The position numbers and the translations under genes were made by a program. Shown here piece by piece: positions 6,690 through 49,874 of a DNA stretch of 64,000 bases (position 1 is the first letter of the stretch; every line of letters begins with the position of its first letter). Source of the stretch: Bugula neritina. Taxonomy: Eukaryota > Animalia > Bryozoa. Below the pieces are notes generated by a model. That model made no database searches, was not told the origin of the DNA, and saw nothing but the letters and a program-made list of their open reading frames with translations. The stretch covers positions 17,219,875-17,283,874 of the forward strand of contig OZ037768.1 of assembly GCA_964035545.1 (NCBI GenBank). The letters run 5' to 3'.

Positions 6690-8039
6690 CTTTAAACCTT
6701 GTGACTTGACCTGAAAAAGTGAAATAAAATTGTTGAAGAATGGTTTTAAAAGCTGCATATGCAAACTCAGTTGTGTGAAACTATGGTAATTTGCAAAAAT
6801 TACTTTGGTTTACTGATTATACTGGTAATGAGAATTAATTATCAATTTGCTTATTGAGAATTTGATCATGTCTCTCATGTCTGCACAGCCCTTTCAAAAT
6901 ACTATTTATTAATAAAAACACTGACGGAAAATATAATTATTAATAATAAAATCATTAAAGAAATTATATCATTATGCTCCCATGCAACCGAAAATCTATC
7001 TGTACGAGCATCCATCTGGATCCACTCAAACTATAGGATTGTAGTGATTATAATGTTTATTTTCAATATAAGTCTAACATAAAAGTTTACTAAGGTAAGA
7101 AGCACTAAGCAGGGCTTTTCAATTCCCGTGTGTAGTTTATTTTCTTTTGCAATATTTCAATTTATTTATTATATCACTTTTCTATGAATTGTTTTAAAAT
7201 AGATCTAATACAAAAGAATGAAGCCTGGCTTTTTGTTTTTCATCAAATTTATTCGCAGCAAGAAAACTCTTTGCTCATTAATTCTGCACGGAATCAATAA
7301 GTCACAACTACTGACCATATCTCTAACCCAATTAAGTATTTAATAGATTATATTAATAATATAGTATATTCATTAGTTTTTAGAAAAGTTACGTCAGCTT
7401 TAAGAATTATCTGCGTCTGCAGATTCATTTGATATGCGCTCTATTTCATATGCACTTCGTATCTATTGCTTCAAGAAAATTAAAGTAACAAATCAATCCA
7501 TAACAGAATTATAACAAAACATACCTGTAAAGCTGTATATCTGTAAATACAGAATTTTATAGGTTCTGTTAGAATTCTCGTATGGGTGGATATTAAGCAC
7601 AGATTCTGACTTGTAACATGACACTCCCTATGAAGTTGGTTAAGCTGACTGCTTTATAGAGGTTGTTGATATCTCCATCTATTAATAAATTGAGTGAAGT
7701 ATACTAACAATTGAAGTGCTATCAATTACCAATGAGTTTATAAGAGGTTTGCTGTCAGCTTTTTGTGAAACTGTGAACAGCTTTATTCAAGGCATTATAT
7801 GCTTCATTTTGTAAATAGGAAATATATGCTAAAAATATTTGAAAATATAAGCAATTTGTGGTTTCAGTTACAATATTATTGATCACATTGGTAACATATG
7901 ACAACTAATATTACATAAGTATGAAATTTTCTGCAGGTTTTGAATTAGCTCGATTTATTCAAATTTAAAACATCAACAGTTTTGTCAATACTGGAATACA
8001 CTTCATAAAATAGTAACATGTGTATAATGCATGTAATAG

Positions 8040-8255
8040 GGAGTAGCCGTGGTCTAGGGGTTAGAGCATTTGCTAAGTAAGCACGAAGTCATGGGTTCTT
8101 GCCGCGGCAAAGGCCATTGGTGATGTTAGAAAGAGCATCCAGTCATAATTACTCTTGTGTCTCATTTAAATAAGTCCTTAGCCCGATTTAACAAAAACCC
8201 TTTGCATCAGAGGTTTTATCACTAGGATGGTGACTATAAACTTGCTTGAGTTTTT
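8040..8255 (+). mobile_element. tRNA-derived SINE (about 210 bp), copy 1
   Basis: A-box-like TAGCCGTGGTCTAGGGGTTAGAGC, B-box-like GGTTC, conserved core GGTGATGTTAGRAAGAGCATCCAGTCATAA and T-rich end. Six related copies occur in the window. Confidence 0.8.
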
Positions 8256-8895
8256 ATAATGCATGTAGTGCTTAGCTACACGGTAACTAAACCCAAGTAT
8301 GAATAAGAAATTTATCTACTTTAACTAAAGTGAAATAGATTTTTATGTATTGGTGAATGATTACATAGTTCAACAAGCAGTAATGTTACAATGCGAAGTA
8401 CATACACTACATTTCCATGCTTTTCATCACCATTTCTCATTCAGTGTTTAGAAACAGTTGCATGAAATATAGCCACAACCATATGTTCATCCATACAAGC
8501 ATTCATTCCCATAATGCTAAGTTATGAAAAACTAATGATATTGTATATTTGTATGTGGTTCTTAACCATACATTATATAGACTTATTGTATTTAAAATTT
8601 GCTTCAACATGCAATAAGTTTACAATGTGGTTATATAGTAGGCTGACAAAAAGTGAATATTATTTGAAATAACATACTAGGAGAGAAACAGGATAAAAAA
8701 GAAAATTCAGAATCACAGACTTTTTAATATATCAAACACTGAAGAAGAGGAAAAGCTATAGCTTAACATAAGAACTTTATAATATTATCTAGCTTAAACG
8801 TCTAAGCTTGCATATCAAAAGTTTATTTTTCCTGTAGTTGTTGAAAGTATTCAATTTTTCTATACAACTTATAAATTTATAAAAGGCATCTCTCC

Positions 8896-11800
8896 TTATA
8901 GCTGCAAATACTCAATATCAAGTTGTACATTCTCATGGCTGTCATGTATCTCTCTGTCCTCTTTCTCTCTCTCACTCTCTCGCTTTAGTGCTGCCATCAG
9001 TAATTGTCTTCTCCTCTTATTATGCTCCCAGTAGACATTAAAGTTGCTTCCAATAACAGCTACTGGTAGAGCAGTGAGAATTATTCCAGTGAGGGAGCAC
9101 ATAACTCCAATAATATAACCAACAACTGTAGTAGGATAGAAGTCGCCATATCCAACTGTTGTCATGGTGATAATTGCCCACCAGTATCCTGAAACAATCA
9201 GACACTCTTACAATTTGCAAGACATATTCAATTATATCTGATTATTCAGTTCATTTGTTTTTTGTTAAAACCAAAAGACGAGTCTGAGAAAGAAATCAGA
9301 CCAAAAGCTGCATGCATGCAGCTTTTTGAGACACTGGGATGTTTAGTGTTAGATCTAGCCTATATAGTCTGTCTTCTCAACATGGCTGGAGTTGCATGTG
9401 CTCTACAACTGAGGGTCAAAAGTTTTATTCAATATTTCAGTATAGATTTAAACTGAAGCTCTTATATTGCAAGAAATCCTCAAAACAATTAGTTTTATGG
9501 TAGTTAAAGTTTAAATTAAACTGGGTTATTTTAAAAATGCATGTTTCACTTGTAAAAGTAAACACAAATGTGAAAAATCTTTAACCAATGTCAAGTTTAG
9601 ATTACATACAGGTTGATAACTTATACTATAATAGGCTTCTGTTAAAATTATTCACTTTATAATGTGGTATGCATGCAAATATTATACTTGGATATTAGAA
9701 AACTATTGTAATAATATTACACAACTTTTATGGCTATAGCTAATGAATGCTATTACCAATTCCCCTTCATTATTAGACATTAGAGAAAAGCTGTGGTCTA
9801 GGGGTTAGAGCGGTTGCCTAGTAAACCCGAAGTCATGGATTCGAGCCCTGACAAAGGCCATTGGTGATGCTATGTATTGAACTAGCCTTGTCAATACACC
9901 ACATAGATGCATATTATGACATACCACATTTTATGTGCTCGGTTACTTTTTATTCTAATGTCTATTTGTTTAAACTCATTATATACAGTTTTTGCCATAT
10001 CAATATACAAGCCAGTTGTTATTCTGTCACTGTTTATCTACATGTATTTTTATGTCAGTTACTTGTTAGCTTCAATACAATACAGTCATACATTCTACTC
10101 TACAGCCAATCTTACTTATACGTGCTTAATCTTACTGTTTACTCTTGTTTAACATAAATAACAAGAACACAACAACTGGTGTCAGAACTGGGATAAATAC
10201 AACCACATCATTTTGAAATGGAGGAAGTTATAAAACAACTTGTAACAATAATGCAGCAACAACAGCAGCAGCAGATGGAGCAATTCGCTCAAATACTGGG
10301 ACAATTTACTACAGCTGTAAAGCCTGGTGAACCTGCACAAAATAAATCTGTAACTGTGCCTAGATTCGACTCTTATGACAGAGACAAGGAATCATGGACT
10401 CAGTATTTACAGCGGCTCAATCAACACTTTACTGTTTACAACGTAAGTGACAGTGAACAAAAACGAGCTTGCTTACTTTCATGGATTGGCTCAGAATGTT
10501 ATGAATTGCTAACAAAACTGTATGGCTCGGAGGACATAACTACCATGTCGTTCGATAATCTAGCAGGTAAGCTTAGCACACATTTTATTGAAACAAAACA
10601 TGTGCAAGCAGCTAGATATCAGTTTTATAACTGTAAAATGAAACCTAACCAGTCATACTCAGATTGGGCAGCTGATTTACGGGGTTTAGCTCGTAACTGC
10701 AATTTTACCTGTAAAAAGGAAGACTGTGGTGAAAGTTATGTTGATGATCAAATTCGTGACATAATTATTAAAGAAACTCCACATGCTGATGTACGTAGAC
10801 AATGCTTATTGGATCCAGATCCTACACTGGAAAATGTGTTAAAGAAGGCAGCTACATACATTCAAACAGCAGAAACTGATAAAGTTTTGAAGGGTGAGAC
10901 CTCTACACCTGTTACCACAAATCAAATGTCCTCAACATACAAACGTCAAAACAAAGGTAGTCAGGGCAAGAGACCACAATTTCACAAGTCTGAAAACCAG
11001 ACTGCTATGCCAACACAGCCTTCCAAGTTGAAATCGTGTCCACAATGTTACATTAGCCACGATCGTAAACAATGTCCTCATCGTAACAAACAATGTAAGC
11101 TGTGCAACAAAACAGGACATATTTCTAGCGTCTGCAAAACTTCATCAAAATCAAGTGGGAACAACTCTCACTTCGTAGAAGAATCTTCAAGTAGTGTTTA
11201 CAATATATATGAACGCAAGGGGAAACAAATATGGATTAACACTACTGTGAACAACAAACAAACACAATTTCAGTGGGACACAGGCGCTACTTGTTCTATG
11301 GTAGGGAACAAAGGCTACGAAGCCCTAGGCTCTCCACCATATCAACAGACAGACACGACCCTTCATTCATATGGAAATACCGCTATGCAGGTACGTGGTG
11401 AATGCTATGTAACAGTAACCATTGGTCAGACTACAAAAAACAATCTTCGATTATTAATAGTAGACTCAGATGAAGGTGTCAACTTACTGGGTGTAGACTG
11501 GAGTGACAGTTTTGGACTATCACAACAGGGTCTATCTGCTGTAGACAGTGACACCGAGGTTACTAACGCGGTACACAATGTTGATACCAAGGTCAAAGTT
11601 CTCACAACAAAATATCCCGATGTTTTCAAACCTGGAATAGGACATTGTAAAACATTCAAAGTACCAATTTACCTCAAATCAGAACAGAAACCTTGTTTTT
11701 CTAAACCTAGAGAAATCCCCTATTCTCAACATGAGGCCACTAGGGCTGAATTGAACAGGCTTGAAGCTGAAGGTGTCATACAACGTATTAACTTCAGTAA

Positions 11801-14800
11801 CTGGGCCGCTCCTATAGTAGTGGTTACCAAACCGTCTGGCAAAGTTCGCATCTGTGGAGATTTCAAGCGACTCAATCAGTGCATCTCCATAGATCAGCAT
11901 CCACTACCAAAACTGGATGATTTAATGAACAGGCTTAGAGGAGGTAAATTCTTCACCAAACTTGACTTGGCTGATGCTTACCTACAACTTGAGCTAGAAG
12001 ATGATGCCAAACAGCTGTGTGTGATAAACACTCCATTCGGATTATACCAATATAATAGAATGTGCTTTGGAATTGCCCCTGGTCCAGCTCAGTTTCAACG
12101 GTGTATGGATACCTTGACTCAAAAATTACCAGGAGTTGCTGCATACCTTGATGATTTAATCATTACTGGTAAAACGGAGGAAGAACACTGGACTAATCTG
12201 ACAAACCTGCTTTCAACACTTCAAGAGCATGGTTTTCGAATACGATTAGACAAGTGTGAATTCTTCAAGCACTCTGTTGAGTATCTGGGTCACACCATCG
12301 ACAAGGATGGCAAACGACCAACAGCTGCTTCCATGGCAGCTCTCTCTCAATTACCTCGACCACAGGACTTGCACCAACTGCAAGCATTTCTAGGAAAGGT
12401 TAACTACTATGGGCGCTTCATCTCTAATCTTGCGGATAAAGCAGCTCCACTGTACAAGCTCCTCAAGAATGATACCACATTCACATGGTCAAATGAATGT
12501 GAACAAGCCTTTACCCAGCTGAAGAATAGCATTATCAATGCTACTAGCCTGACACACTATGATGAGACAAAACCCCTAATTCTTGCAGCCGATGCGTCAT
12601 CCTATGGATTAGGAGTTGTTCTCTCACAGGATACTGATCAGGGAGAAGTTCCAGTGGCTTACGCTTCAAAAACAAGGAAATGCTATCTACATAGTACAAA
12701 CAGACAGTGGCAACTGGAAGAGGCATGCTAATCAGCTTCAAATTCGCCTTCCATCTACAAATATGAACAAATCAGTGGTACCCAACACACCCCAAGCTGA
12801 TAATAATATTTTCCATCCTCATGAGAGGCGCTATCCAACCAGAGAGCGCAGACAGCCAGATTGGTACAAGCCATAACTCTTAAGTCTAAATTTGTGAGGG
12901 AGGAGTGCTATGTATTGAACTAGCCTTGTCAATACACCACATAGATGCATATTATGACATACCACATTTTATGTGCTCGGTTACTTTTTATTCTAATGTC
13001 TATTTGTTTAAACTCATTATATACAGTTTTTGCCATATCAATATACAAGCCAGTTGTTATTCTGTCACTGTTTATCTACATGTATTTTTATGTCAGTTAC
13101 TTGTTAGCTTCAATACAATACAGTCATACATTCTACTCTACAGCCAATCTTACTTATACGTGCTTAATCTTACTGTTTACTCTTGTTTAACATAAATAAC
13201 AAGAACACAACAGGTGATGCTAGGAAGAGCATCCAGTCATAGTCGCTCCTGTGACCCATTTAACAAAAACCCATTCCATCAAGGGTTTTCTCACAGGGAT
13301 GGCGACTATAAACATTTGTAAGCTTTTTATTAGACAGTGCAACTACTGTCTGCATGGTGTGTGCTGTAACTGTATAAAATACAATAACCGATTACCGTAA
13401 ATGCAGTCAGGAATTCCTGCTCCTGTGTCAGACTGCAGCTCAACAAAAGAGATGGTGGTAGCGAAAAGAAACATGGCGATCATCAGATACAACACCATGA
13501 TGGTCAACTCCTTTAGACAGGCTTTTAGAGTTAATATTATAATCATTAGCCCGTCCACAAAACTTGCAAACTACAAAACAAGTATATAACAGCTCAAAGT
13601 TTACAATGTGCTGTAAATGTTATTTAGAAAGCATCCTGTGAAATGTGTATTAAGCACCAACTACTGGAAAATAACTTATGTTAAATAATAAGGTTGTGGC
13701 CATCTTCTATTTGATGTCATTTTAGCTTCTGTAAATAGAAATGAAACTGCTCGTATATACTGCTTTAGGTACGTTGAATAGTGCATATCCTAAAAAGTCT
13801 TTTGTTATGTTGAGAAAAAAACTGGAATAAGCAAAAACCATAACACAAAATTATTCAAAGTGACCCAATTATATGAAAAGAACTGTCCATATAATATCCA
13901 AATGTGTAAGTATAGGTGTAGGTCTAAGTGTAGGTGTAGGTGTAGATCTGTAGATGTAAGTGTAGGTGTATTGTGTAGGTGTATTGTGTAGGTGTAAGTG
14001 TAAATGTAGGTGTAAGTGTAGGTGTAAGTGTAAGTGTAAGTGTAGATGTAAGTGTAGGTGTAAGTGTAGGTGTAAGTGTAGATGTAAATGTAGGTGTAAG
14101 TGTAGGTGTAAGTGTAAGTGTAGGTGTGAGTGTAGGTGTGAGTGTAGGTGTGAGTGTAGGTGTAAGTGTAAGTGTAGGTGTAGATGTAAGTGTAGGTGTA
14201 AGTGTAGGTGTAAGTGTAGGTGTAAGTGTAGGTGTAAGTGTAGGTGTAAGTGTAGGTGTAAGTATAGATGTAAATGTAGGTGTAAGTGTAGGTGTAAGTA
14301 TAAGTCTAGGTAGGTCAAGTAGAATGCCTAATCAATTTTGCAGTTTTAGCAGTTTGAAAAAATCTGCAAATAAATTTAGGAATTATTATTTCAGATTTGC
14401 CTAATTACAAACAGAAAACCGTTGGAGGTAATTTAAAATTTAAAGTTAGCAATTTAATTAAAATTTTACTGAGCTTACTGATCAGCTCAGCTTATGTACT
14501 AATAGGAACAAGTTTACAGCTCCCATTGACTGTGCGTCACAACTGTGAGTAATGAAAGATTGAATTTCTGGTATATTGCATTGATGTGTGTGTAAATATT
14601 GTAAACAAAATTAAATTATCAATAATTTGCTAAATGCAAACTCTTGAAAAATATAGCTTTTCAAACCAATAATATCATTATAAACATTATTTGTGCAGAA
14701 AATACTGCAACTAGACCCAATTTTAAAATGAAGTCTGTTGAATAAGTATTGAGAAGGTAAAAGATCTAGCAAAAATATTATCAACTGTAAATAGGAAGGA

Positions 14801-16003
14801 ATGTGACTACCAATGTTTCAGCCAACCCACAATTTATTTTTTTTTTAATTATAATTTCTGTTTATATAAAGTAATTAGGTTAGAGCTGTTTTCCTTGAGA
14901 ACAAAATTGAAGTGCTGTCTAGAATAAAGTTATACCCTATCAAAAGAAAATATTAAAAGTTAAAGTACCTGAAATATCTTGAAAATCTTCAAGACCTGCA
15001 ACGACTGGAATATCATCAATACTCTATGTATTTCTTTGTCATAGTGCTCATCAAAGTCGTACGAATTTGATATCGATGTCAGTGCAAACGAGCTAACAGC
15101 ACAGAGCCCTGAAAATATGTCCATCCAGTTAATAAATGATTTGAAATACATCAATCCTGGGCACAGAATCAAACGCAGTACTGTTTCAAAAACGAAAAAT
15201 GTCATGAAAACTCTCTTGGCTGTAATGATCCAAGGTTTTGGTGAGCTGTGGACGTAGCAATCAATTTTCTTCATTCCCGAGCAACCGATATTTTCTATGG
15301 CCTGCTCCATGTCACCAGTTAGGTTTCTGACAAAGCTTCTAGCTTCCTTCTCCGGGTTCGGTTGTCTGTAGTGCACACTGGTTCCTAGACCATGGATAAT
15401 CAAATACAGAAATACAGAAGCAATGGTGATCACAGCATACATGACTGACAGTCTTCTAAACTTTGTATATGGACCAAGTGGGTCAGTTATAAAACACCAA
15501 CATGTATATCTCAGCTCTAAAAACTTGTTAGACCCTGGAGGAGGTGGTGGTGCTCGGTTTTCCAGCCACTGGAACTCGGCTTCCAAACGGGATTCTTCAT
15601 CATCTTGAATTCCATTGATACCATCACTCGGAATATTCCAGAAGTTTATTTCTTCCATCACCAGCTCTTTGTCATATCCAGATGGTACATTCAGCACATT
15701 ATATCTGAGAATATTCAGAACTGCATTGAATAATGCAGGATCTCTATCAAAATAGAATGCGTTGAGCTCTTCAATCCAATGATCTGCTAGTAAATGCGGA
15801 GAAGCAAACTTGCTGTGTGGGTAACTTTTTATCAGCTGATTAGAAACAATAAACTTTTCTCCTGATATGTTGAAATGAAAGAGTTGAAGTGAAACCTTGC
15901 TTTTCTCTTTAGTGTGTTTTACAGCCATCTTTTCATTTTCTACGCCCACTTTATTTTTGCTGATAGCAAAAACTGCCGTAGCTACAGCCGCAAAGTCAGC
16001 CAT
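8896..16003 (-). CDS. Voltage-gated K+ channel family subunit, Shaw/Kv3-like and divergent (paralog B)
   Basis: Coding exons 16003-14969, 13570-13396 and 9188-8896. Exon phases and the 175-bp middle exon match paralog A; filter [12 protein letters not shown]. The second coding intron carries the Gypsy insertion. Confidence 0.9.
9868..13212 (+). mobile_element. Ty3/Gypsy LTR retrotransposon (Mag-like), internally deleted and non-autonomous
   Basis: LTRs of 307 bp at 9868-10174 and 12906-13212 (TG...CA, no differences seen by eye). 5-bp TSD GGTGA at 9863-9867 and 13213-13217. PBS TGGTGTCAGAACTGGGAT at 10177-10194, a near-complement of the tRNA-Leu 3' end. PPT GAGGGAGGAG at 12896-12905. Confidence 0.97.
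10218..12731 (+). CDS. Gag-protease-reverse transcriptase polyprotein, truncated in RNase H
   Basis: 837-aa ORF with tandem Cys/His knuckles (CPQCYISHDRKQC, CKLCNKTGHISSVC), protease WDTGA, RT motifs WAAPIVVV, RICGDFK and YLDD, and the RNase H start ADASSYGLGVVL...VAYASKT. Homology then breaks off and there is no integrase core. Confidence 0.93.
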   Translation: MEEVIKQLVTIMQQQQQQQMEQFAQILGQFTTAVKPGEPAQNKSVTVPRFDSYDRDKESWTQYLQRLNQHFTVYNVSDSEQKRACLLSWIGSECYELLTKLYGSEDITTMSFDNLAGKLSTHFIETKHVQAARYQFYNCKMKPNQSYSDWAADLRGLARNCNFTCKKEDCGESYVDDQIRDIIIKETPHADVRRQCLLDPDPTLENVLKKAATYIQTAETDKVLKGETSTPVTTNQMSSTYKRQNKGSQGKRPQFHKSENQTAMPTQPSKLKSCPQCYISHDRKQCPHRNKQCKLCNKTGHISSVCKTSSKSSGNNSHFVEESSSSVYNIYERKGKQIWINTTVNNKQTQFQWDTGATCSMVGNKGYEALGSPPYQQTDTTLHSYGNTAMQVRGECYVTVTIGQTTKNNLRLLIVDSDEGVNLLGVDWSDSFGLSQQGLSAVDSDTEVTNAVHNVDTKVKVLTTKYPDVFKPGIGHCKTFKVPIYLKSEQKPCFSKPREIPYSQHEATRAELNRLEAEGVIQRINFSNWAAPIVVVTKPSGKVRICGDFKRLNQCISIDQHPLPKLDDLMNRLRGGKFFTKLDLADAYLQLELEDDAKQLCVINTPFGLYQYNRMCFGIAPGPAQFQRCMDTLTQKLPGVAAYLDDLIITGKTEEEHWTNLTNLLSTLQEHGFRIRLDKCEFFKHSVEYLGHTIDKDGKRPTAASMAALSQLPRPQDLHQLQAFLGKVNYYGRFISNLADKAAPLYKLLKNDTTFTWSNECEQAFTQLKNSIINATSLTHYDETKPLILAADASSYGLGVVLSQDTDQGEVPVAYASKTRKCYLHSTNRQWQLEEAC
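13905..14312. repeat. Hexamer microsatellite (GTGTAA/GTGTAG)n
   Basis: About 400 bp of GTGTAR units in an intron of Kv paralog B; it explains the HLHL, CRCK and VGVS ORFs. Confidence 0.97.
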
Positions 16004-18211
16004 ATTTCTTATATAGATACTACCTGCGAGTAAAGGATACAAATTATTTAACCTAGAAACAACACTGAAATGCCGTGAACATTTATTGATTGCATATAAA
16101 CACACATGAATTATTGAATAAATTCAACATATAAAGACAATCCTCATCATGATGGCTTATTATAATACATTTATTGTATTACGATTTGTAATAAATTCTT
16201 TTTAGATGAACTCGAATTTTTGTTTGCTACAGTATATAGACTAATGCCAGCTTGAATCTTTGTTTATTTTAAAAACTAATGACAGAAAAAAAATGTGATG
16301 AAATCTATTTGAAAACATAAAAGCCAAGCTGAGATGAAGTGCTTGTATTTAAATGTTTTACTTACTCAAACTTTCAGTTTCTAGAAGAGTAGACTCATGA
16401 ACTCGCTCTATCCTTATCCTTGCATCCTCTCAGAAGCTCATGCTGGCACACACTAAATTTATATACTATGCAGTGACCACATTTCACAATAAAATAATCC
16501 TGTATAATACTGGTTGATCAGACACTTATCCCATATTACAACTACTAAACACTGATTCTATTCAATAATGAAGAGAGCTAAAAAATCAACCTATTTGATT
16601 GCAGGTTTATCGACATGGCTCTTTCACTTTATTCAAATATTGATTTAAGATTTTCCATTTTCCTGGAAAAGTTCATTGCCATTACTGAATATATTATAAA
16701 TGTTAAATATTATTCCATCCCACATTTTACATAAAAGGTAATCTCCCTCTTGTGCCCATTTGAAATCCATTTCAAGCTTTATTTTCTATCATAATAAAAT
16801 ACTGTGTAGGCAAATATAACTGCATGGCTTTGATATTAACCATTGGATGGCCAACATGATATAGCATTAAACTAAACCACAATGAAGAAAATTAGGATGA
16901 GTTATGAAATTATGTTGCACCAAAATCACATGGGGCAGTTAATTAAGTTATATATTTACAATAATTTGTGCAATTGTTGTATATGTAGCTTGTGTCCGAA
17001 TCAATTGCTGTCATTATTTGCTTGCTTCGGGTTAATAAACACAAATGATTTCAAACACAAATTATTTCAAAAGTAATATGTAATAGCATGAATACATAGC
17101 TCTAATTGTCAACTCACTCTGCTCTTTGAATAGACATGTATACACGATTTCTGTTACTTCCTCAAGCAATGAAAACGACTGAATATGAATTGGTTTGATA
17201 TTTGAAACTGCATGTGGATATACAATGCCCATGTGCAACTAAGTGCTCTACACATTTTATTATCATAATTTATCAGTTATACATGTATAGCAGATGCCAG
17301 TGAAAGGAAATACAGCATATTATATGCAACAGATATTGGACTTTAGTGCCAAAACATCCTTATTACTGCTGCTGTAATATGTACTATAGACTATATCAAT
17401 AATGAAGCATGTAATTTTATTGCCTTTTCATTTCGCTTCATATGACTGACATCATGGCAGATGGATGCTGCCTTGCGGTGTGTTTTTTCACAATATGGAG
17501 TTGTTCCTCTTGGTACAGCTAATGCTTATACTCTTGTAGCTGTCATCCTTTCAACTGTGTGAGCATAATGTATATTGTGTTAGCAGGATTGATCATGGAA
17601 TGAAATGACAAAATATGATAACATTTGCATGTATGGAATTGAATAAAACAATGGCCAAAGCAATGGTCCACAATGATGATGTAAAACTTAAACATATTAA
17701 ATTCATTTACTGACTGCTAATTAAGTTTTAAAAATTTTCTTTAACACTTGGGGTGAAAAAATTGTTGCTGGTAATTAAATTGTTGTTACATATAATATTT
17801 TTGACTACTATTAGAGATCAAGCCCAGTCAACAAAAATTCATTTACTACTATTAGCATTATTATTTAATCATATAAACTAACCTGCCAGCTGCCCAATAC
17901 TTTAACTTTCACTAATACTCCTAGTCTGTTGTCTAGAAAGTTATTTAATCTACCAGGGTGAGGCTATGAAGACTCGCCAGAAGAGAGCATTTGTGAGACA
18001 CATGGACCAGAAACACTGGTTTGACAATACAATGAAGTCTAATAGCAGAGTTACAACTATAGCATAAGCTAGACAGGATGTGGTGAAAGAGGTGCCATCA
18101 GCCATTGTAATTCACCTACAACAATAGCGAAGTCTTTTAACACACTGTATATGCTGTCTGCCAACTCTCCCTTCCCGATGACCTCTGCAGGTTGAAATAG
18201 AAGCCTTGAAT

Positions 18212-18405
18212 AAAAAGCTCACGCAAGCTTATAGTCGCTATCCCGTCAGAAAGCCCCTTATGGAAGGGTTTTTTGTTAAAATCAGGCTAAGGATGAGGCA
18301 CAGGAGCAATTATGACTGAATGCTCTTCCTAACATCACCAATGGCCTTTGTCCGGACTCATGTTTACTAGGCAAGCGCTCTAACCCCTAGACTACGGCTA
18401 CTCTC
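18212..18405 (-). mobile_element. tRNA-derived SINE copy 3
   Basis: Reverse complement of the SINE core and head (...TGCTCTTCCTAACATCACCAATGGCC...CTAACCCCTAGACTACGGCTACTC). Confidence 0.8.
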
Positions 18406-18578
18406 TGAGTTAAATACTTTGAATGATCTAGATATAAGTAGCATAATTTATAGTTCCTATAGATGCTATAAAACTCGTTTTATTTGCAGAATATTTGTGC
18501 AATTAAGTTCAATGAGTAGACCGTTCTATATTTTTGGAGTGAATAGTTAAATAAAGGCAAAGTTCTACCCAAGACAGA

Positions 18579-18582
<4 letters not shown>

Positions 18583-18642
<60 letters not shown>
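18583..18642. repeat. (TA)n microsatellite
   Basis: About 30 TA units; the tract resumes at about 18957-18975 on the far side of the ribozyme-bearing insert. Confidence 0.95.
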
Positions 18643-18645
<3 letters not shown>

Positions 18646-18957
18646 CAATCTGTGGACAGCAGCTGTTTCGGGGTTTGTCCCCTCATCAGCACAGAACAGA
18701 GTACCATGGCCCACACCTTCGCAATAGTAGAAACTTATGTTTCTACTAAAGCATATTTAAAAGGTGTGTAAACTCAAGCCAGAGAGCTCAAGTGACTCTA
18801 GGGTCACCTAGGAGTCACGAGCCTTGCAAAATGCTAGCAGCTTGAGTTTGTGACCATGGTGAGAGAGCTCAATCACTGAATGTCATTGCTGAGCATTAAG
18901 TGAGAGCATAATACCTCAATCTGTGGACAGCAGCTGTTTCGGGGTTTGTCCCCTCAT
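18642..18957 (-). mobile_element. Retrozyme-like or Penelope-associated non-autonomous retroelement (271-nt period, about 1.17 monomers)
   Basis: A direct repeat of about 45 bp at 18642-18686 and 18913-18957 contains the hammerhead; the second copy is truncated. There are internal hairpins and (TA)n on both flanks. Confidence 0.7.
18649..18695 (-). ncRNA. Type I hammerhead ribozyme
   Basis: The minus strand reads TCTGTG-CTGATGA-GGGG-ACAAA-CCCC-GAAA-CAG-CTG-CTG-TC-CACAGA: stem I TCTGTG/CACAGA, core CUGAUGA, stem II GGGG/CCCC, GAAA, a minimal stem III and a GUC cleavage triplet. Confidence 0.9.
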
Positions 18958-19206
18958 ATATATATATATATATATGTTGGAGGAGTCATGGGCCTTGCAT
19001 TATAATGCAAATTGAATTCATGATATCTCTGAGCATAAATTATGTATGCATTATATTAAATATGTAAATGCATACATAAACTAGTTTTGGGAATTGGGAC
19101 ATAGAATGTATATCATTGATATTTTTCATATGCAGATATGTTTAAATTCCTTAATCATAAAATGATATAGAAAACTGAGCTTCAATTATTTATAGCCTAT
19201 TGTTTT

Positions 19207-19208
<2 letters not shown>

Positions 19209-19286
<78 letters not shown>
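19209..19286. repeat. (TA)n microsatellite
   Basis: About 39 TA units. Confidence 0.95.
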
Positions 19287-19292
<6 letters not shown>

Positions 19293-19630
19293 ATAAATAT
19301 ACGAGAAAAATTATTGATTCATTATTTTATTAGGCAAAGTAATTATACTGATATATATATATATATGTACAAATTTGTCATAAAACTCACCACATAAAAT
19401 TATAAAGATTATCCTGCTTTACATCATAACAAGTAAATCATTGTATTAATATGCAATAAAACATGTCAAAATATCAAATATGCTGCAATCACTAGCCGCT
19501 TTAACATGTTGTATACCCTTATTAAGTAGTACGCATTAAATGTAATGTAACAAGTGATGACAACCACGTAAACACACTACTATGAAAGTATATATAACAT
19601 TGATGACAAATGATAATAATTTTATTCTTT

Positions 19631-22600
19631 TCATTCTTGAGAGTTGAGTTTTGAAATATCTGAAGTTGTCGTTCCAGCAGAAGTGTTTTTCTGTTTGTGT
19701 TTCTTCTTCAAGGCAGCAAACAACAGCCTTCTTCTCTTCCTATTGTGCTCCCAGTAGACGTTAAAATGGCTGCCAATAATGGCCACTGGCAAAGCCGTAA
19801 GAATAATTCCAGAAATAGCGCACAAAACTCCGACAAAGTATCCACCAACTGTAGAAGGATAGAAGTCACCGTATCCAACTGTTGTCATGGTGATGATTGC
19901 CCACCAATATCCTAAAACCCAAAGAAATACTTGGCTATAAAGAATATCCGTTGTAAAGTCACAATGCAATGCTAGCCTACAGGCTTTATTTTGCATTTTT
20001 CATCATAAATTGACCAAAGAGCATAGAGATTTTGGTTCGCCGACTATTGGGTTCAAAAACTTCAGCTTATTAGCAACATGAAATGCCTATTACTGATGGA
20101 TGTATTTTTCTGCTTCTGCTCACTTGCCTTTGAAGAAACACCTATTTGTTACACACTGATGCAAAATAGACCAGTTTCGCAGTGATTTCAACAATTGCTT
20201 TAATTTCCCAACTGGTGATATAATATATCAGTTAATTAAAAGAATTTTTCTGAGTGCCAACAACAATAAAAATTCACACATCAATGAAGTCACAAGACAA
20301 ATGTTTAGTGTCCTAATATAATTTGCCTGACAATTACATCAAGTTTTATATCTTTCAGCACAGTGTGAGTAACTTTGCCTTGGCCCTAGACCAAGGCTGT
20401 CCAACAGCCGGGCCCCAGGGCCGGATGTGGCCCCCTGCCTACATTTATGTGGCTCTCAAAGACATAAAACTAAAATTATTTTTCACAGCATATACATGAA
20501 TTAGAGTGAAAAACCACCTGCCTGATTTATACACATGCTATAAAACATGCAGCCAGCATCAACTATTGGGACTTTATTCTGTAATGATTCATAAGAATTT
20601 GGAATAAAATAATTCATTAAATACTGTGGCTGTGGCCCCCAGCACAAACTAAAGTTTACAATGCGGCCTTCCCCACAAAAAATTCAGTGGCCCTCGATCT
20701 AAAAAGTTTGGACACTCCCGCCCTAAACAGTGTGGTTTTAGTCAACAAGTGTAAAGGCCTTAGTATTGGTCAGCCTACCCACACTGGCTAGTTTATTAAC
20801 GTATAATGATAGTATAATGATGACTACAATGCCGAGGTTGTATGGTCACTTACTGGGTTACCTTTATAGTTTATAGCATTACCAGCCAGTGACTTATTTA
20901 ATCAATAATTTTCTTTCCTTTTATTTTCTAAAGTTCACAGTCAACACTCACCATCCAAGCTTAAAATTCATTGCTTTTACAAAATATAATTGGCCTATGT
21001 AAAGAATAATAAGCAATTGCTTTGTAGATAGTTTTATGTTATTAGAAGTTGTAACTGCAAATTGTTAGAAAAAGAGGAATACAAAATCATTGATACAAAA
21101 AGCTTTGAGGTGAGGTGGATTAATGAAGAGGTTAGGAAAAGCCTGTGTTCTAAATCAAAAATGCAACAAATAAAGTTATGTTCTTTCAAAGATTATTCAA
21201 GCTATATCTCAAGCCTAATTCATAATGAAAATTAAAAAACTTAATCTATTGAAATTTCTTTCTTACTGAACCTAAATATTTCTACCACAAAGATACTTGT
21301 ACAGCAAAATACCAAAAATAGATTCAGCCCCTAATTAAATGTTTACACATTTATACTAACTGTAGTGCCAGTTCTCTGTAACATGAAAAATTGATATCTG
21401 AACATATTGTTGTCCAATTTTGTTGTTGTCACATAAAGAGTTCAATAGAATTGCCTCCTCCACCTATAGGCCTTAAGGTGGTAAACTTCAAAGCAAAGAA
21501 TCTTAAGAATTTTGAAAAATAGATAAAGGATGTTTTATGCCGATCTTCAGTATTTCTTGATATATTACACAGTATCCTCCATATAGACATGCAAGTGCTT
21601 TTGCAGTCACTGTCCACTTTTAATTTAATAGGGGCTGCTAGAATGGTATGATAAATCATATCTGTTGACTATATTGGTCATAGTAAAATATGATTGGTAT
21701 GAGCTTTGCTAATAAATTTTAACAAAGCTTTCTTGTGTCAAGCAGGTATAATTTATTTATGATAAATTTGCATGCTTGTCAAAGGTTTTCACATGCATTT
21801 TTAGACACACCTAAAAGTTAATGCAGTTTTTGATGTTGCATTAGGCAACCTAACATAGATTTTATTAGACTGTCTATGAAAATCTTAGCAAGTAAACGCA
21901 ACTATTAATTCCTTAGCTTTTAAAAATTAATCCCTGACCAGAAGTACCACACATGGTCATAAAATATGAGCAATTTCTCCAGCAGATATGCTGAAAGAAG
22001 TGAAGATATTTGATCATATGGTTGACTGACTTTGATCAACACTATAAACCTTGTTGGAGAATAAGTGTGATAGTAATGGCATCAGCCTGCATGGAAGAGC
22101 ACAAGAGGAATGATGAGATCAGAGGCATGGCAGGAGTAAAAGCAGTAACTGTATCGATGAGGAAGAGTTAGCCTAGGGCCACACAGTGCGTATTTTCGCA
22201 TGCGAAAATTGAAATCACAAGTAGCAAAGGTGTCCACTGTAGCGTCAGTGACGCGTGATAAATAAAGCATTCATTTTAAAAAATCGCACTCGCTTTCAAT
22301 AAAACGCAATTACTGGAATATAGCACTAAAATAAAGAAATTGGGCTCGCTGAATAACTACCAGCCAATTAGGTGACGATGACCGAGACGATTCGCACTTG
22401 CGTTGAAAATGCAGAGCGACAAGTGCGAATGTTTTCTCAATGCGCACAGTGGATACCTTTGCTACTTGTGATTTCAATTTTCGCATGCGAAAATACGCAC
22501 CGTGTGGCCCTAGGCTAAGCTGAAATGGTATGGGCATGTATGCAGGTGAGACAAAGAGGAGGGCATAAAGAGAATCAGCAACATCAGTGTGGAAGGCAAG

Positions 22601-24292
22601 AGAGACAAATAGGTGAATGAATACCATAAGATGGGGATATGAGAGCGTGGAGCTTGCATAGCAAGGACACATGTAATAGAATTAGATAGAAACCATTAAT
22701 TGAGTTGGTTATGCAGAACAGTACTTAAATAGGTCGGATGAGAATAAGTGTGGTATGACTAGACTGTAAGTCTATGCAAAAGAATTTTAAGTATCTGATG
22801 CTGTGGTTCCCAGACTACCATACAGCATGAAGGCAGCGCTAGTTGATGGTTTAAGGCAGCACTCACCATAAACACAATCAGGCACTCCAACACCCATTTC
22901 TGATTGCAGCTCTAGGAACGAAACGGATGTAGCAAATATAAACATTGCTATCATTAGATACATAACCAGAAGGAAAAGTTCTTTCAAACAGGCTTTGAGT
23001 GTAAGCATCATCACCATGAGCCCATCTATCAGACTTGCGTACTGTAATGAAGAGAATTTGATGCTATAATTAATATATAGCTTTATTACTAATACAAGGT
23101 ATAACATCACAGCCCTATATATATTAATTACTTACTTTTGGCACTGCAAATGAAGTCAATATAAGATTATAGATTCAATGATATTATTTATCGACTATGT
23201 TTAATTTATTTGTTCAGAAAATAAGAAATTCTAAACAATTATAGAATTTGACTTTACCTGAAAAATTTTGAAAATCCTCAAAATCTGAATGGACTGCAGA
23301 CAGATAACAATGTAATGCAAATGCATTTCAGCTTCTCCCACAATCTCTTTGGTAACCACAACAATTTCGATGGCAAAAGCTGCCAACGCACCTATTCCAG
23401 CTAGAATGTCAATCCAAGTTATTATAGACCTAAAATACGCCAAGCCTGGACATAGGATCAATCGAATTAATGTTTCCAGGATAAAAACAAATTTTAAAGC
23501 GTATTTGGAGTAGGTTATCCAAAGTAAAGGTGTTGTTCGAATGTAGCATGATATTTTTGACATTTGAGAACAACCTAGATTGTCTATAGCAGAGTCTAGG
23601 TTGGTGGTCTCCGCAGTCTTGTTAGTGTAAAGAGCAGGTAAAGCGTGCTCATCAATAACTCTGTAATGTGGGCTGGTGCCTATGCCATAAAGTATCATGT
23701 ATAAAACCACTGCGACAATCGAAAACACGGCATATGCGATAGACATTCGCCGATATTTTGTATATGGACCAAGTGGGTCAGTTATAAAACACCAACATTT
23801 ATATCTCAGCTCTAAAAACTTGCTAGACCCTGGAGGAGGTGGTGGTATTCGGTTTTCCAGCCACTGGAACTCGGCTTCCAAACGTAACTCTTCATCATCC
23901 TGAACTCCTTCGACATCTTCTTTTGGAACATTCCAGAAGTTAATTTCTTCCATCACCAGCTCTTTGTCATATCCAGATGGTACATTCAACACATTGTATC
24001 TGAGAATATTCAGGACTGCATTGAATAATGCAGGGTCTCTATCAAAATAGAATGCATTGAGCTCTTCAATCCAATGATCTGCTAGTAAATGTGGAGAAGC
24101 AAACTTGCTGTGTGGGTAACTTTTTACCAGCTGATTAGAAACAATAAACTTCTGACCCGAAATGTTAATATGGAGAAAATGTAAATCTTTGACAGCATTA
24201 TCTTCCACCTTATTTGTCGTCATCTTTTTCAGATCTTCATTTGATAAGCTCATATTAATCACAGCACTAGCAACTGCAGCAACGTCACTCAT
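19631..24292 (-). CDS. Voltage-gated K+ channel family subunit, Shaw/Kv3-like and divergent (paralog C)
   Basis: Coding exons 24292-23258, 23041-22867 (175 bp) and 19911-19631; structure matches A and B; filter [12 protein letters not shown]. Confidence 0.9.
20392..20720. mobile_element. hAT-type MITE
   Basis: Imperfect TIRs CAAGGCTGTCCAAC...TTTGGACACTCCCG, subterminal GGCCC motifs and an 8-bp TSD CCCTAGAC/CCCTAAAC (20384-20391, 20721-20728). Confidence 0.75.
21106..21290 (+). repeat. Unclassified interspersed repeat of about 170 bp, copy 1 of 4
   Basis: GAGGT...GAAAAGCCTGTGTTCTA...AAGTTATGTTC...CTAAAT; related copies at about 35925-36092, 38215-38382 and 56379-56540. Confidence 0.7.
22085..22680 (+). 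mobile_element. Decayed 3' end of an RTE-clade non-LTR retrotransposon, interrupted by a MITE
   Basis: Removing the MITE gives [31 protein letters not shown]...VEGKR, which resembles the RTE C-terminal RNxxIR...LxWxGHVxR...GKR signature; it contains an in-frame stop. Confidence 0.65.
22171..22515. mobile_element. MITE with TIRs of about 70 bp, probably PIF/Harbinger
   Basis: GCCTAGGGCCACACAGTGCGTATTTTCGCATGCGAAAATTGAAATCACAAGTAGCAAAGG... with its near-perfect inverse ending at 22515; flanks are TTA and TAA. Confidence 0.85.
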
Positions 24293-26452
24293 ATTGAATG
24301 CTTTATGGGCTTGAATCCAGAGTAATGCTGTTATGAAAAAGAAAAATGTTTAATAAGAACAAATAATGATGCAAGACTGACAATTTTCATTCAACATAAT
24401 AAAATACATTTTAAGTAAATGAATTTTATTTACAAATTCTTACCTGAGAGCTTGAGAAAGGTAGAGGATGACCCTAACGCTTGATTTGTGGTTGTAAAAC
24501 TGCCTAAATAGTTAACAAGCTGCTGCCTACTTGAACAAAACAAGTCAATTGTCAAGAGCTGCCAAATCTCTGCACGAGAGGTGTTAAGAAATTAGTTCTC
24601 CAGCTGTGCCTTCTCAGTGTTACTTGCGGAGTGAATAATAGTTTGTAAGTAGCTAATTATTGAGTCTAAGTTCTTAGTGCTGCTTCTAGCTGAGGCTACA
24701 AACTAGGTGATTAGCATAGCCCTGCCCGAACAGAAATGAATGAATTGTGGCACACATTACTTTTAAGTAGATCATCTACCCTGGCTTATCCTTTCACACT
24801 ACAGTAATTACAGCTCCACAATAATACGTAATTTTATCCTGTCGTAAAATACATAAATCTAATTTAATAAATTGCCAAGACTGAAGAATGTCACAAACCT
24901 ACATTTAGAGCATAGACTGGTACCATATAACTAGTAAAATGGGGATGATTAGTCTCTTAGAGGCTGTATTGCCATAAGGTTATTGCACCATAAAGTAGTG
25001 GTGAATTTTCTTTTACATAATATTCAAAAATTATTTATTCAAGAACATACTAGGCCCTATAACTAAAAGTATTTTTTATATTTTTCTAAAATATAGTAAT
25101 TATATATGCTTGTTTAAAATAAAAGGTTGAATAAATGTCTGATACAATTAAGGGATTGTTTTAAATAGACAGTAAATTTTTCAGTATAAGCTAGTAAATA
25201 GCATATAGGAAAACCACTGAATATAATAATATGTAGGCATCTTGAACTAAATACTACCATCATTCTCAAAAATGCTCACAATGTTGTAAAGATATAATGG
25301 CAGGTCTGTAGCCACTTGCCTTTAAACATTCAATTGCTTAGCAATATGATGCAAGCACCTACTATTTGTACCATCAGACCAGCCACAAAAACAAGGTCAA
25401 CCGAGTGATCTTAGTATTATATTATAACAAAGCAATAAGCCCACTGTCAATATGTCAATGTGAATATTTGTAAACATACATCTGTTTTGTGAACTAGAAG
25501 TATTTTTTGTTGTATTATATGAAATGACTTTGGTTGACAACAGTCACAGCACTTTATACTTAAATACCTTGCAGTTTTAGTTCTAAAAACTTACATTGAA
25601 ATTTGGACTTGCAATATCAGTAATAAACACATGTTTTTTCTGACTGCATAAAGAACTGGTGACAGCTTGGCACATTCTATAGAAAGTAATAGCAATAGTT
25701 GGTCTACACTCTACAATCTACATCATTAAATGTTGAAAATTACAACTTTACAAAAAAAATAATGAAGGAAGCTTGGTAGGTTAGCAAGTGCTTTGTTTTA
25801 TTTTAACTTGTTTTCAGCCCATCTCTTAAAGTTAACTGTAGGCTCCCAGAAGAAATATATTTAGTGAAAGCTGCCATCGAAATAAAAAAAGTAATTCAAA
25901 CATGGATAAAATAAAAGCACAGCACCAACAAAACAATGATCATCAACCCATACCCTCGTAAAAACACCAAAAAGATTGTATTAAGTATTTTTTTCCCAAA
26001 AGAATGTATATGTTAGACTAAGAAAAACATTCGTTTAAAAACCTCACCATACCAACTTCTGCAATATTAAGATAAAAATACAAGATTAATGCTAAGTTGT
26101 ACTTCTAACAATTGAGATTACTGATGAAATTTAAACAGAACAACATTTTTCTATCTGCAAGAAAATAACATTAATATTCTTTAAAAAGAAACAACCTTAT
26201 TTATGGCTGTAAGCATTGGAACATATTTCATTGAATGAAATGTTTAAATGTCACTGCTCTAACTGTGACAAGATAATGCATTTCCAACATGATCAGCAGC
26301 TATGATATGGCATACATATAAACACACACACAAACATATTTAGTTTACAGTTTCAGAGCTGTGAGAATTAGCAATATGGAGATTCAAGCACTCATGGAAG
26401 GGAGAGGGGAGTAAATAAGTAACACAAAAACAATCCATCATTAAGGATTGCA

Positions 26453-29400: not shown

Positions 29401-32400
29401 CATCTGAGGTTATCATTGTATTGTTGGGCAGTCTTCATCGATACTAAAACAAGAGGCATGATGAAGGTATATGTACAATTACAGCTCACAATAATATATG
29501 AGTTAATACTAATTAGCATAGATATAGTTGTATTGGCAGCTTATAATTCTATCCTCAGTATATGATCAAACTTCCTTAATAAAAGCATAATACTCCTAGT
29601 ATTGCCAGATCTTTAATTGGTCATCACCACTAGAAATACTTAGCCTTGGATTAACATATTTGTCAAGTTTAGTTGGGGGAGGAAAAGAAAATCCCAACAA
29701 ATATAATGAAAAAATGAATAAAAAGTAAAATGAGAAGAGAAATTTGTCATTACAACCCTGAGTGAACCAACTGCCTACCATCTGACTTGAGGATGTTTTC
29801 AATAACTTCAGCCGCAATTTCATCAGTCGTATCAAGGTCACATTCATCACAGGAAGTACACACCCACCTGAATGGACCGAACCCAAGAGAAAAGACATCC
29901 CCCATGATGTGCTGAACATAAGAAGGGTACTTAAATTCATTAGCGCCCCCTCCTTTTGCCAATACATCCACCCCTATTAATAGGAAAATGATACACTAAT
30001 TATACCGATTGCTATACCATTAGCTGAAATCTATAAATAGTAAATATAATGTATATATATATATATATATATACACATATTTACTACACACAGGAAAAGG
30101 AAATACATTCATTTAATATAGTAATCAACGGAGTCCTACCAGCACGAGATGCTTCCAGCAGGAAGGCATTTCCGTAGTCAAAGAAATGCAGACCATGGCT
30201 GGCTAATTTCTCTATAGCAGACACTTGTCTTCGCAAACTGCAACAAGGTGACATAATATATGGCGACATGAGGTAGAAGAGCAGATCTGATGGCAACTTA
30301 TAGATTCAAGTTATATTTGTAGTAGAGTTAAAAGTATACATCTAGTACCAACTATCTCTCTACTTGAAAAGAGTTTAAATTTTTTGGGTTAAATCAGTAC
30401 TAATTTTCTTACTAAAAGTGTCTATTAAACAATAAGTAATTCACTAAAACTACTACAATAATGCTTCATTGCTACTAATTTTTTTGGAATACATACTCTC
30501 AAATTTAAAAATGATGCAAATGTATACCTAATTTTAGGTAATGTTGAGTCTATTCAGAAACAATTATTCATGATTTGTATAAATAATAAAGACAGGCAGT
30601 GCACCTAGTTCCCCGCCTCATCTATATTTTATGTGTGCTACTGTTGACCCGTTAACCAGTGCTATCAGTCTAAAGTTTAATACACCAGTAACATTCACAG
30701 GAAATGCACATGTATATAGTCATACTGACTGCACCAGACTAGGCACTTTGTATTTAATGCAACAAGAGGACGCAACTCGCAAACAACTCACGCAAATTTA
30801 TATTCACTACTCCTGTGAGAACCACTGATGGAAGGGGTTTATAAATCGGGCTAAGGATTTATTCAAATGGGGCACAGTAACAATTATGACTGAATGCTCT
30901 TCCTAACATCACCAACCGCCTTTACAGGGGATTAAACCCATGACTTTGTGTTTACTAAGCCATCACTTTTACCCCTAGACCATGGCTGGTAACAACACTA
31001 AGTAATACGCAACTGAAAAAAAACAGGCAATTATGACAATAATAAGGAGTTGTCTTCTACCATTGTTTGATTACTCGGTCAGTATACTTCAGCCAGTTTG
31101 TTACCTCTCCTGCACAAGAGCCTTGAACTGAGACGGGTCTTCATGCATCATCGTCCTCGCCTGTTCATACGTCAGCTGAACCGGGTAATAGCCACCCAGG
31201 AAGGGGTTGTGACAGGACGTCTGGTCAGATCCCAACTCCACCAGCATCTCACCCTGCTCTGCCAACTCAGCCAGTTTCTCCCACAGCGACACCACATTGC
31301 CTGCACAGTGATAAAATCTGTATCATTAATATGTTATGTTTTGCTTAGGTAAACAGACACTTTTTTAAAATCAACATACTTTAATTGGCTAAATAGTTCC
31401 AAATTATATATTTGCAAGAAACGTGTACATAGTTTTACAACTCACTGCACTGGTAATTAAATGAGTCTCAATTTTTATAATAATTTTATTGCATAAGCAA
31501 GCTTCGCCAATAGAAAATGACAAAAATATACTTGTATTATTGCGCCTATCTACTCTGGTGTCGGTTAGTTTCAAAAGCTACCAGAACCAGTCACCAGAGT
31601 ATTTCACAGGTAATAGTAAAATATTACACCCGCAGTATTATAAGACACATAGCATACAACATAAAATACATAGATATAGTGTGACAATAACATTAATACA
31701 GAAAATGAAAACCAAACATACCTAACACCTTGACACAAAGTTACAATACTATCTTAGTCATGCTAAGGAGAAAGTATAGATGAGCCTACCTAAGAAACCT
31801 ATACTGGTGCTGATACTATTTCTTCTACCCTCTCGGATCATGTTGATGCAATCCTCCAAATTAGTAACCTTGTGAAGCACCCAACCCTGCTTATATCTTT
31901 TATCTAGAGCCTCTTCGCTAACCTGTAGCATTACTGAACTGTGCAGCATTATGGATAGATGAAATATCAAGTATAGCCTTGGGATAAGCACTCTGAGCGG
32001 GGCATGGTCAAAACCATACTTGATATAATGAAGGGTCATATACATGCAGGTCAAGGGCATTTGGGCTACTGCTTTCCTTACCTGACTCTAGCAGTCAGGT
32101 AGTTGTAGTTTAAAACTTTATCCAAATCACTTTTTGGATAAGATTCCCTTGTGCCGTTTATCTTATACAAAAAATGAGTTTAATAAAGTTTTAAACTGTA
32201 GCTACCTTTATACCTATGTACTGAGATTATCAATTTTGTCTAGTAAGACAACTCCCATATAATGTACGAGAGAATCACTCAAGTCACTCATTATTGTCTC
32301 AATAACAAGTCAACTTCTACTGCACTTCAATAAGATTTTAATCAGTAATGATAAACAACCTGGAGCTGCTTTAGCAGTCACTGTGAAATCGTAGAAAATG

Positions 32401-46078: not shown

Positions 46079-49874
<3,796 letters not shown>

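Follow-up and report, generated by a model that had tools for sequence, protein, structure and literature searches.

Non-LTR retrozymes of Metazoa, described in corals, mussels and the axolotl, are non-coding repeats of 170-400 nt that carry a type I hammerhead ribozyme, lie head-to-tail in many copies, lack LTRs and are predicted to give highly paired circular RNAs, most of which leave the ribozyme free (PMC7229834). They have been argued to be non-autonomous derivatives of Penelope-like elements (PLEs) (bioRxiv 10.64898/2026.07.22.740005), a link that in the papers compared here has so far been drawn from co-occurrence and from homology to the terminal repeats (pLTRs) of PLEs. A bias towards (TA)n targets and partial tandem copies have been described for the PLEs of the Hydra, Neptune and Naiad clades, together with a fixed 3' end, varied 5' ends, inverted joints and, in the Hydra clade, a hammerhead in the repeat (PMC8557442). 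A PLE examined in vitro was seen to nick AT-rich DNA, to begin reverse transcription at an internal position of its RNA and to use RNA that was uncleaved (PMC11167929). The satellite RNAs of newt and axolotl form double hammerheads, in which a weak palindromic stem III gains strength as a long two-copy duplex once the strands are swapped (PMC4209133, PMC7229834). A good motif is no guarantee of activity, since eight of nine Xenopus retrozyme dimers remained uncut in vitro (bioRxiv 10.64898/2026.07.22.740005). Small, highly paired, hammerhead-bearing RNAs are also known as plant LTR retrozymes and viroid-like circular RNAs.

In the 64,000-nt stretch of DNA from the bryozoan Bugula neritina analysed here (the window), an insertion of 318 nt is found on the minus strand at 18640..18957. 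With good confidence we regard it as one 1.17-unit copy, set in (TA)n, of a high-copy 271-nt non-coding hammerhead repeat, likely a non-autonomous non-LTR retrozyme and probably placed by a PLE. By its testable features the unit appears to belong with the metazoan non-LTR retrozymes, a class already known (PMC7229834): its 271 nt lie within the length range of that class and within the broader one of 150-450 nt used for non-coding hammerhead units, GC content is 45%, the hammerhead is of type I, copies are many (their number being rough) and head-to-tail, the monomer is highly self-paired and LTRs are absent. The locus differs from these retrozymes in a stem III of 4 bp with a 3-nt loop, where 1-2 bp is usual (PMC7229834), and in the fixed position of its 3' end at (TA)n, for which no counterpart was found in the passages of the same article compared here. 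Moreover, the copy does not hold two complete ribozymes, which places it outside the elements called active in bioRxiv 10.64898/2026.07.22.740005. In comparison with plant LTR retrozymes and viroid-like RNAs, the hammerhead is of type I rather than type III, there is no LTR and the opposite (plus) strand of the element holds no hammerhead core.

The initial annotation had read a complete type I hammerhead on the minus strand at 18649..18695, and this agrees base for base with the sequence. The conserved core CUGANGA / GAAA / UH is present on the minus strand from 18695 to 18649, where stem I (6 bp) pairs 18695-18690 with 18654-18649, the core box CUGAUGA occupies 18689-18683, stem II (4 bp with a 5-nt loop) pairs 18682-18679 with 18673-18670 and the GAAA box lies at 18669-18666. 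Stem III is a 4-bp hairpin, palindromic with a central U, at 18666-18656, followed by the GUC at 18657-18655, which sets the canonical cut at 18655/18654, as had been proposed. Constrained folding of the isolated ribozyme extends stem I past a small internal loop (18642..18703), and this extension is a candidate loop-1 partner of loop II. A helix I of 6 bp, a helix II of 4 bp and a palindromic helix III correspond to the canonical metazoan definition given in PMC4209133, with helix III above the usual length. The motif is thus of the canonical type I metazoan form, for which self-cleavage is predicted. A minimal, often palindromic stem III had been cited as typical of metazoan retrozymes; here the stem is palindromic, and its 4-bp arms, in a canonical ribozyme with 6-bp and 4-bp stems, are not minimal. 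The stem sizes likewise speak against the minimal PLE-type hammerhead, in which helix II is long and helix I short (PMC4209133).

A lax hammerhead descriptor gave a single match in the window, and two of 100 simulated windows also contained one. The Rfam scan suggested in the initial annotation did not bear the motif out: no hammerhead reached the gathering score, none appeared among the 34 weak matches of an 801-nt segment including the element, and with the 318-nt insert the only hammerhead match was RAGATH-1-hammerhead, below threshold (15.2 bits, E 5.4). A match in the Rfam library is an aid that stands outside the structural definition of a hammerhead. The miRNA-type Rfam matches in the TA tract are regarded as spurious.

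The insertion consists of 1.17 head-to-tail turns, namely the 271-nt unit and, on its 5' side, a 47-nt truncated copy (18911..18957). The 271-nt monomer from cut to cut, which is also the predicted circle, spans 18655..18925; its longest ATG-started frame, both strands considered, has 21 codons, which speaks against a coding role. A second hammerhead copy 271 nt away, truncated inside the core at the TA tract, had been noted earlier and is confirmed by a 47-nt direct repeat (18640-18686 and 18911-18957) that is 100% identical at a spacing of 271; since the terminal repeats agree at 47/47 positions, the insertion should be young. The truncated copy lacks the 5' arm of stem I and the CUG of the core. 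It keeps stem III, the GUC and the 3' arm of stem I whole, and is therefore a predicted substrate of the intact core, to be cut at 18926/18925. At the 3' end of the element, in RNA sense, lies a (TA)30 tract of 60 nt (18582..18641), the likely target site, whose last 2-3 nt are ambiguous with the element; TA-rich loose ends in the contigs of two sequencing runs described below, X1 and X2, accord with it. At the 5' end a 20-nt (AT)10 tract (18956..18975) shares a 2-nt microhomology with the truncation point. On its 3' side the insert ends 15 nt beyond the cut site and shares 3 nt with the TA tract; a target-site duplication is unreadable within the TA repeats. No further copy of the unit occurs within the 64-kb window. 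Because the insert spans the cut site twice, its template had intact junctions, and was either an uncleaved multimer or a circle copied for 1.17 turns. The earlier suggestion of slightly more than one turn of a small circular RNA is consistent with this arrangement, but an uncleaved linear multimer would equally give the double crossing of the cut site.

A shared-word search found the stretch, or part of it, in 20 of 24 listed public sequencing runs from 13 studies, and details of the family were drawn from the contigs or reads of four of them (X1, X2, X13 and X21). Matching contigs number 913 in X1 and 1071 in X2, so that the absence of other genomic copies, which would have spoken against a retrozyme, is not what is observed; together with the TA-rich contig ends these numbers sustain the retrozyme identity, the multicopy status and the association with (TA)n claimed at the outset. 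Summed depth in X1, a run whose kind of sample is unrecorded, is at least about 41,000 at the listed places (lowest value), and the eight long X1 pieces listed have depths of 23-46 in six cases and of 9.7 and 104 in the other two. Summed contig depth is not copy number, and the figures suggest some hundreds to about a thousand copies, very roughly 10^3. The best-supported loose ends that run into TA-rich sequence are at 18644, 18645 and 18911 (10, 6 and 9 contigs, respectively, in X1, and 4 contigs in X2; 211 further rows stand outside this tally), with a consensus agreement of 0.49-0.61 in X1 and of 1 in X2. Since these ends are concentrated at the 3' boundary of the unit, the copies of the family appear to share a single 3' end abutting TA repeats.

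The head-to-tail junction (18910/18911) is bridged by at least 31 nt on each side in two of the 24 listed pieces and nearly so in three more, and one X2 contig extends from 18952 into another core; no full dimer is found among the contig pieces listed. The share of matched sequence that continues into unlike sequence is only 0.01 in X1 and 0 in X2, which, with the bridged junction, indicates that the unit closes on itself and mostly does not open into a longer element. This bears on the reading, which we hold to be distinctly unlikely, that the unit is the pLTR of an autonomous PLE and the locus a 5'-truncated partial tandem copied from PLE RNA. Partial tandems and (TA)n targets are hallmarks of PLEs (PMC8557442), and some 22-24 of the 57 retrozyme families of Xenopus correspond to known elements, which are PLEs in 21 cases (bioRxiv 10.64898/2026.07.22.740005). 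Seven X1 contigs (18643-18793), furthermore, exit the unit at 18793 with long unlike 5' sequence (the two that are listed measure 1459 and 1163 nt and match the unit at their 3' end), and one X1 contig joins 18656 to 18916 in inverted orientation, a kind of joint known from PLE insertions. However, the contigs that break at 18793 are at single-locus depth, are 86-92% alike and agree poorly with each other (0.52); they may stem from old truncated copies, from a sister family or from a parent PLE, and are the best lead to either of the latter two. The head-to-tail closure of the unit is a further argument against a pLTR, as are stem sizes of the canonical kind rather than those of the minimal hammerhead of most animal PLEs (PMC4209133). 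In comparison with the (TA)n-biased PLEs, with which the family shares the target, the partial tandem, the fixed 3' end, the varied 5' ends, one inverted joint and a hammerhead in the repeat (PMC8557442), no reverse transcriptase frame and no endonuclease frame (GIY-YIG) is found in the unit or beside the locus copy, and the Naiads are described as having no canonical hammerheads, unlike the 271-nt unit (PMC8557442). The retrozyme reading preferred here would also be compatible with a parent PLE of low copy number that has the 3' 150 nt in common with the unit.

The monomer is predicted to be strongly folded, both as a linear RNA (z -7.0) and as a circle (z -6.8; 72% paired), with none of 200 shuffles as stable in either case. 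The self-complementary segments of the spacer that had been pointed out earlier were located in a short hairpin at 18726..18747 (arms 18726-18734/18739-18747) and in a long branched rod at 18770..18849 (arms 18770-18779/18840-18849), to which a hairpin at 18871..18908 can be added, all on the minus strand. The locus carries a minority version of the first hairpin, three other letters dominating the family depth there; the rod shows a double change of the family at 18785/18823 and subfamily indels near 18793-18812, and the third hairpin shows another double change at 18876/18900. These are the two double changes among the 14 variants, out of 27 rows, that are common to X1 and X2 and entered a permutation test; the test excluded every indel and the other 13 rows, which stay under 5% in both X1 and X2 and owe their listing to X13. 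No invariant core position is changed by any of the 14. One changes a stem II G-C pair into G-U and another alters position 7 of the core, which in the standard hammerhead numbering we take to be a free (tolerant) position. On the ribozyme-competent circular fold of the locus copy, 12 of the 14 are unpaired or keep the pair (11 of the 14 on the unconstrained fold), where 100,000 permutations gave a mean of 6.7; the P values of 0.001 for the 12 and of 0.006 for the two double changes are indicative only, as the variants are unphased and not independent. The remaining two break pairs, both in the 18726-18747 hairpin of the locus copy. Common variants of the family thus seem to spare the catalytic core and to keep the predicted fold.

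Such a pattern is hard to reconcile with a family that spreads at the DNA level, as a satellite or a SINE-like repeat, through unequal crossover or the enzymes of another retroelement, and whose hammerhead is now inactive. The inactivity of most tested Xenopus dimers (bioRxiv 10.64898/2026.07.22.740005) lends this reading some ground, but variants that leave both the core and the RNA fold intact, as well as a fixed 3' end with varied 5' ends, which fits target-primed reverse transcription, make it very improbable.

Transcripts of the locus are predicted to fold in a way that differs from the simple cis ribozyme. The folding energy of stem III is -0.5 kcal/mol for a lone hairpin and -14.1 kcal/mol for a duplex with a second copy, and the unconstrained best fold of the locus transcript is a strand-swapped double hammerhead (pair probabilities 0.82-0.99), in which the intact core pairs with stem III, the GUC and the stem I arm of the truncated copy. 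This swapped fold is the minimum-energy one in all six settings (three lengths at two temperatures), with an ensemble share of 0.36-0.43 and the cis fold 6.6-12.9 kcal/mol above it, and it holds with flanks of 190 nt on each side; all energies were computed without magnesium or tertiary contacts. Since the swapped form is the best fold, the first cut of the locus transcript is predicted at 18926/18925, in the truncated copy; of the earlier proposal the canonical position 18655/18654 stands, but by this prediction it would not be cut first. Far from being dead weight, the truncated copy would then be the substrate of choice. After the first cut, the second, in cis, is 2.4-7.5 kcal/mol uphill and requires the release of a duplex of -14.3 kcal/mol; the locus alone may therefore release no monomers, and its second cut may need a partner transcript. 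The likeness to the double hammerheads of newt and axolotl lies in the weak palindromic stem III and the long helix formed on strand swap (PMC4209133, PMC7229834), and the difference in one core being incomplete here, so that only one dimer junction is predicted to be active. In the predicted circle the active fold lies 2.7 kcal/mol higher than the best one and stem III, with a probability of 0.003, is mostly unformed, in contrast to the free ribozyme of most animal circles (PMC7229834); on these values circles would be spared and multimers cut.

According to the retrozyme model that we favour, tandem copies of the family would be transcribed, and the palindromic stem III would bring two ribozymes together into a double hammerhead, whose cleavage would yield 271-nt monomers. 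Circles would arise from these by ligation, and as a single ribozyme would be mostly misfolded there, the circle would be spared. The endonuclease of a PLE would nick (TA)n, and its reverse transcriptase would engage an RNA with an intact cut site, starting about 15 nt 3' of that site where 3 nt of microhomology are available and stopping after one turn plus 47 nt. By analogy with described elements, the mover is likely a (TA)n-targeting PLE. As for the template, we put the chance of a circle slightly above even and that of an uncleaved multimer slightly below; the use of uncleaved RNA by a PLE in vitro makes the linear-multimer route a real alternative. At the locus, the intact core would cut first at the site of the truncated copy (18926/18925). 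A bolder extension of this model, which we consider unlikely, is that truncated 1.x-mer insertions are themselves live sources of circles, with reverse transcription always starting, in the manner of a PLE, 15 nt beyond the ligation junction and with targets confined to (TA)n, the host likely belonging to the Bryozoa. One intact core and a core-less half copy would then suffice: the swapped fold would cut one site, and the other would be cut by pairing with any transcript of the family through the palindromic stem III. If this is true, 'monomeric' copies that have been written off as dead belong to the replicating pool.

Three Kv channel paralogs (BTB_2 and Ion_trans domains) lie in tandem on the same strand as the insert, which is flanked by two of them. 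The genes are those of an intron-bearing animal, and the Atlas cluster closest to a Kv exon gives a weak hint of bryozoan affinity, Bryozoa being its most frequent taxon on the strength of 1 of 101 members with a record. Domain annotation places the last coding exon of the upstream paralog at 19631..19999 (minus strand); the distance from its stop codon (19631-19633) is 674 nt to the insert and about 975 nt to the cut, in good accord with the initial estimate of about 700-950 nt past the stop in the same orientation, and the next paralog starts about 2.6 kb downstream of the insert. Two AAUAAA signals (19626-19621 and 19331-19326, minus strand) lie between the stop and the insert, and the element is one of many copies, so the effect on Kv read-through that had been envisaged finds no backing here. 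For the Kv genes on either side the insertion is likely to be neutral. That the copy has been retained for cutting read-through RNA of the upstream paralog, or for acting on the downstream one, is hardly credible. The insert does lie on the Kv genes' strand and its swapped fold persists within long flanks, but both AAUAAA signals precede it, its identical terminal repeats mark a young insertion and its sister copies are many in TA tracts.

Other features were observed in the same region. The three Kv paralogs extend over 4439-24349 (minus strand) and have large first exons; the Rfam K_chan_RES matches at 4439-4552 and 9043-9156 probably reflect coding similarity only. A Gypsy-type LTR retrotransposon at 9868-13212 (plus strand), whose two 307-nt LTRs are identical and whose target duplication measures 5 bp, interrupts a SINE-like copy within a Kv paralog intron. 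Its frame of 844 aa comprises a protease, a reverse transcriptase and the start of an RNase H, with no integrase match. A SINE-like repeat lies at about 18210-18400 (minus strand), and its relatives, about 75% alike, are found near 8038-8257, 9782-9872, 13213-13331, 30781-30987, 32734-32836 and 49585-49699; the head of this repeat resembles a tRNA by eye, and ARAGORN found no tRNA in it. A long degenerate minisatellite with a period of 6 nt occupies 13805-14330 and has low-complexity frames on both strands.

In run X13, which is RNA only by guess, the unit is covered in 28 of 29 bins. Two variants that carry 39-53% of the depth in X1 and X2 are missing from it (0/120), and one 122-nt contig holds most of the depth at these two sites. 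The skewed alleles hint at few transcribed templates rather than at carry-over of DNA, and a different population would also account for them. In X21, a poly(A) RNA run with another organism label of which 12% was read, no read matched the unit, which has no bearing on its expression.

Runs labelled as organisms B to E and marine or biofilm metagenomes share 0.21-0.68 of the words of the stretch; for X8, X10, X12 and X18, which carry four other organism labels, the share is 0.36-0.68 (18642-18955). Symbiont, seawater, marine and biofilm samples are among the runs containing the stretch or part of it. Such matches are no evidence of interspecies transfer, as relatives, fouling or contamination would explain them. 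A strict search pattern had no match in metagenome contigs. A looser pattern found 40 metagenome and two viral loci, with stems I and II both of at least 4 bp in 6 of the 42; none of the 42 matches the unit outside the core, and the 6 look like unrelated hammerheads. Well-formed hammerheads with a similar stem III, unrelated to the unit beyond the core, occur in metagenome contigs at L006, L012, L019, L031, L032 and L039, and four of them are nearly identical to each other.

In a mostly open-access literature, supplements aside, no report of hammerhead retrozymes in bryozoans was found, the one match listed being on twister ribozymes, and no report of TA-targeted retrozymes was found among the listed matches on retrozymes and microsatellites; the mostly open-access literature on Penelope elements in bryozoan genomes held no title on retrozymes. 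The fixed 3' end at (TA)n would tie a retrozyme with a canonical hammerhead to PLE-type integration by its junctions. The 1.17-mer, predicted to be cut at its 'broken' copy, bears on whether copies shorter than a dimer are dead, and retrozymes may extend to another phylum.
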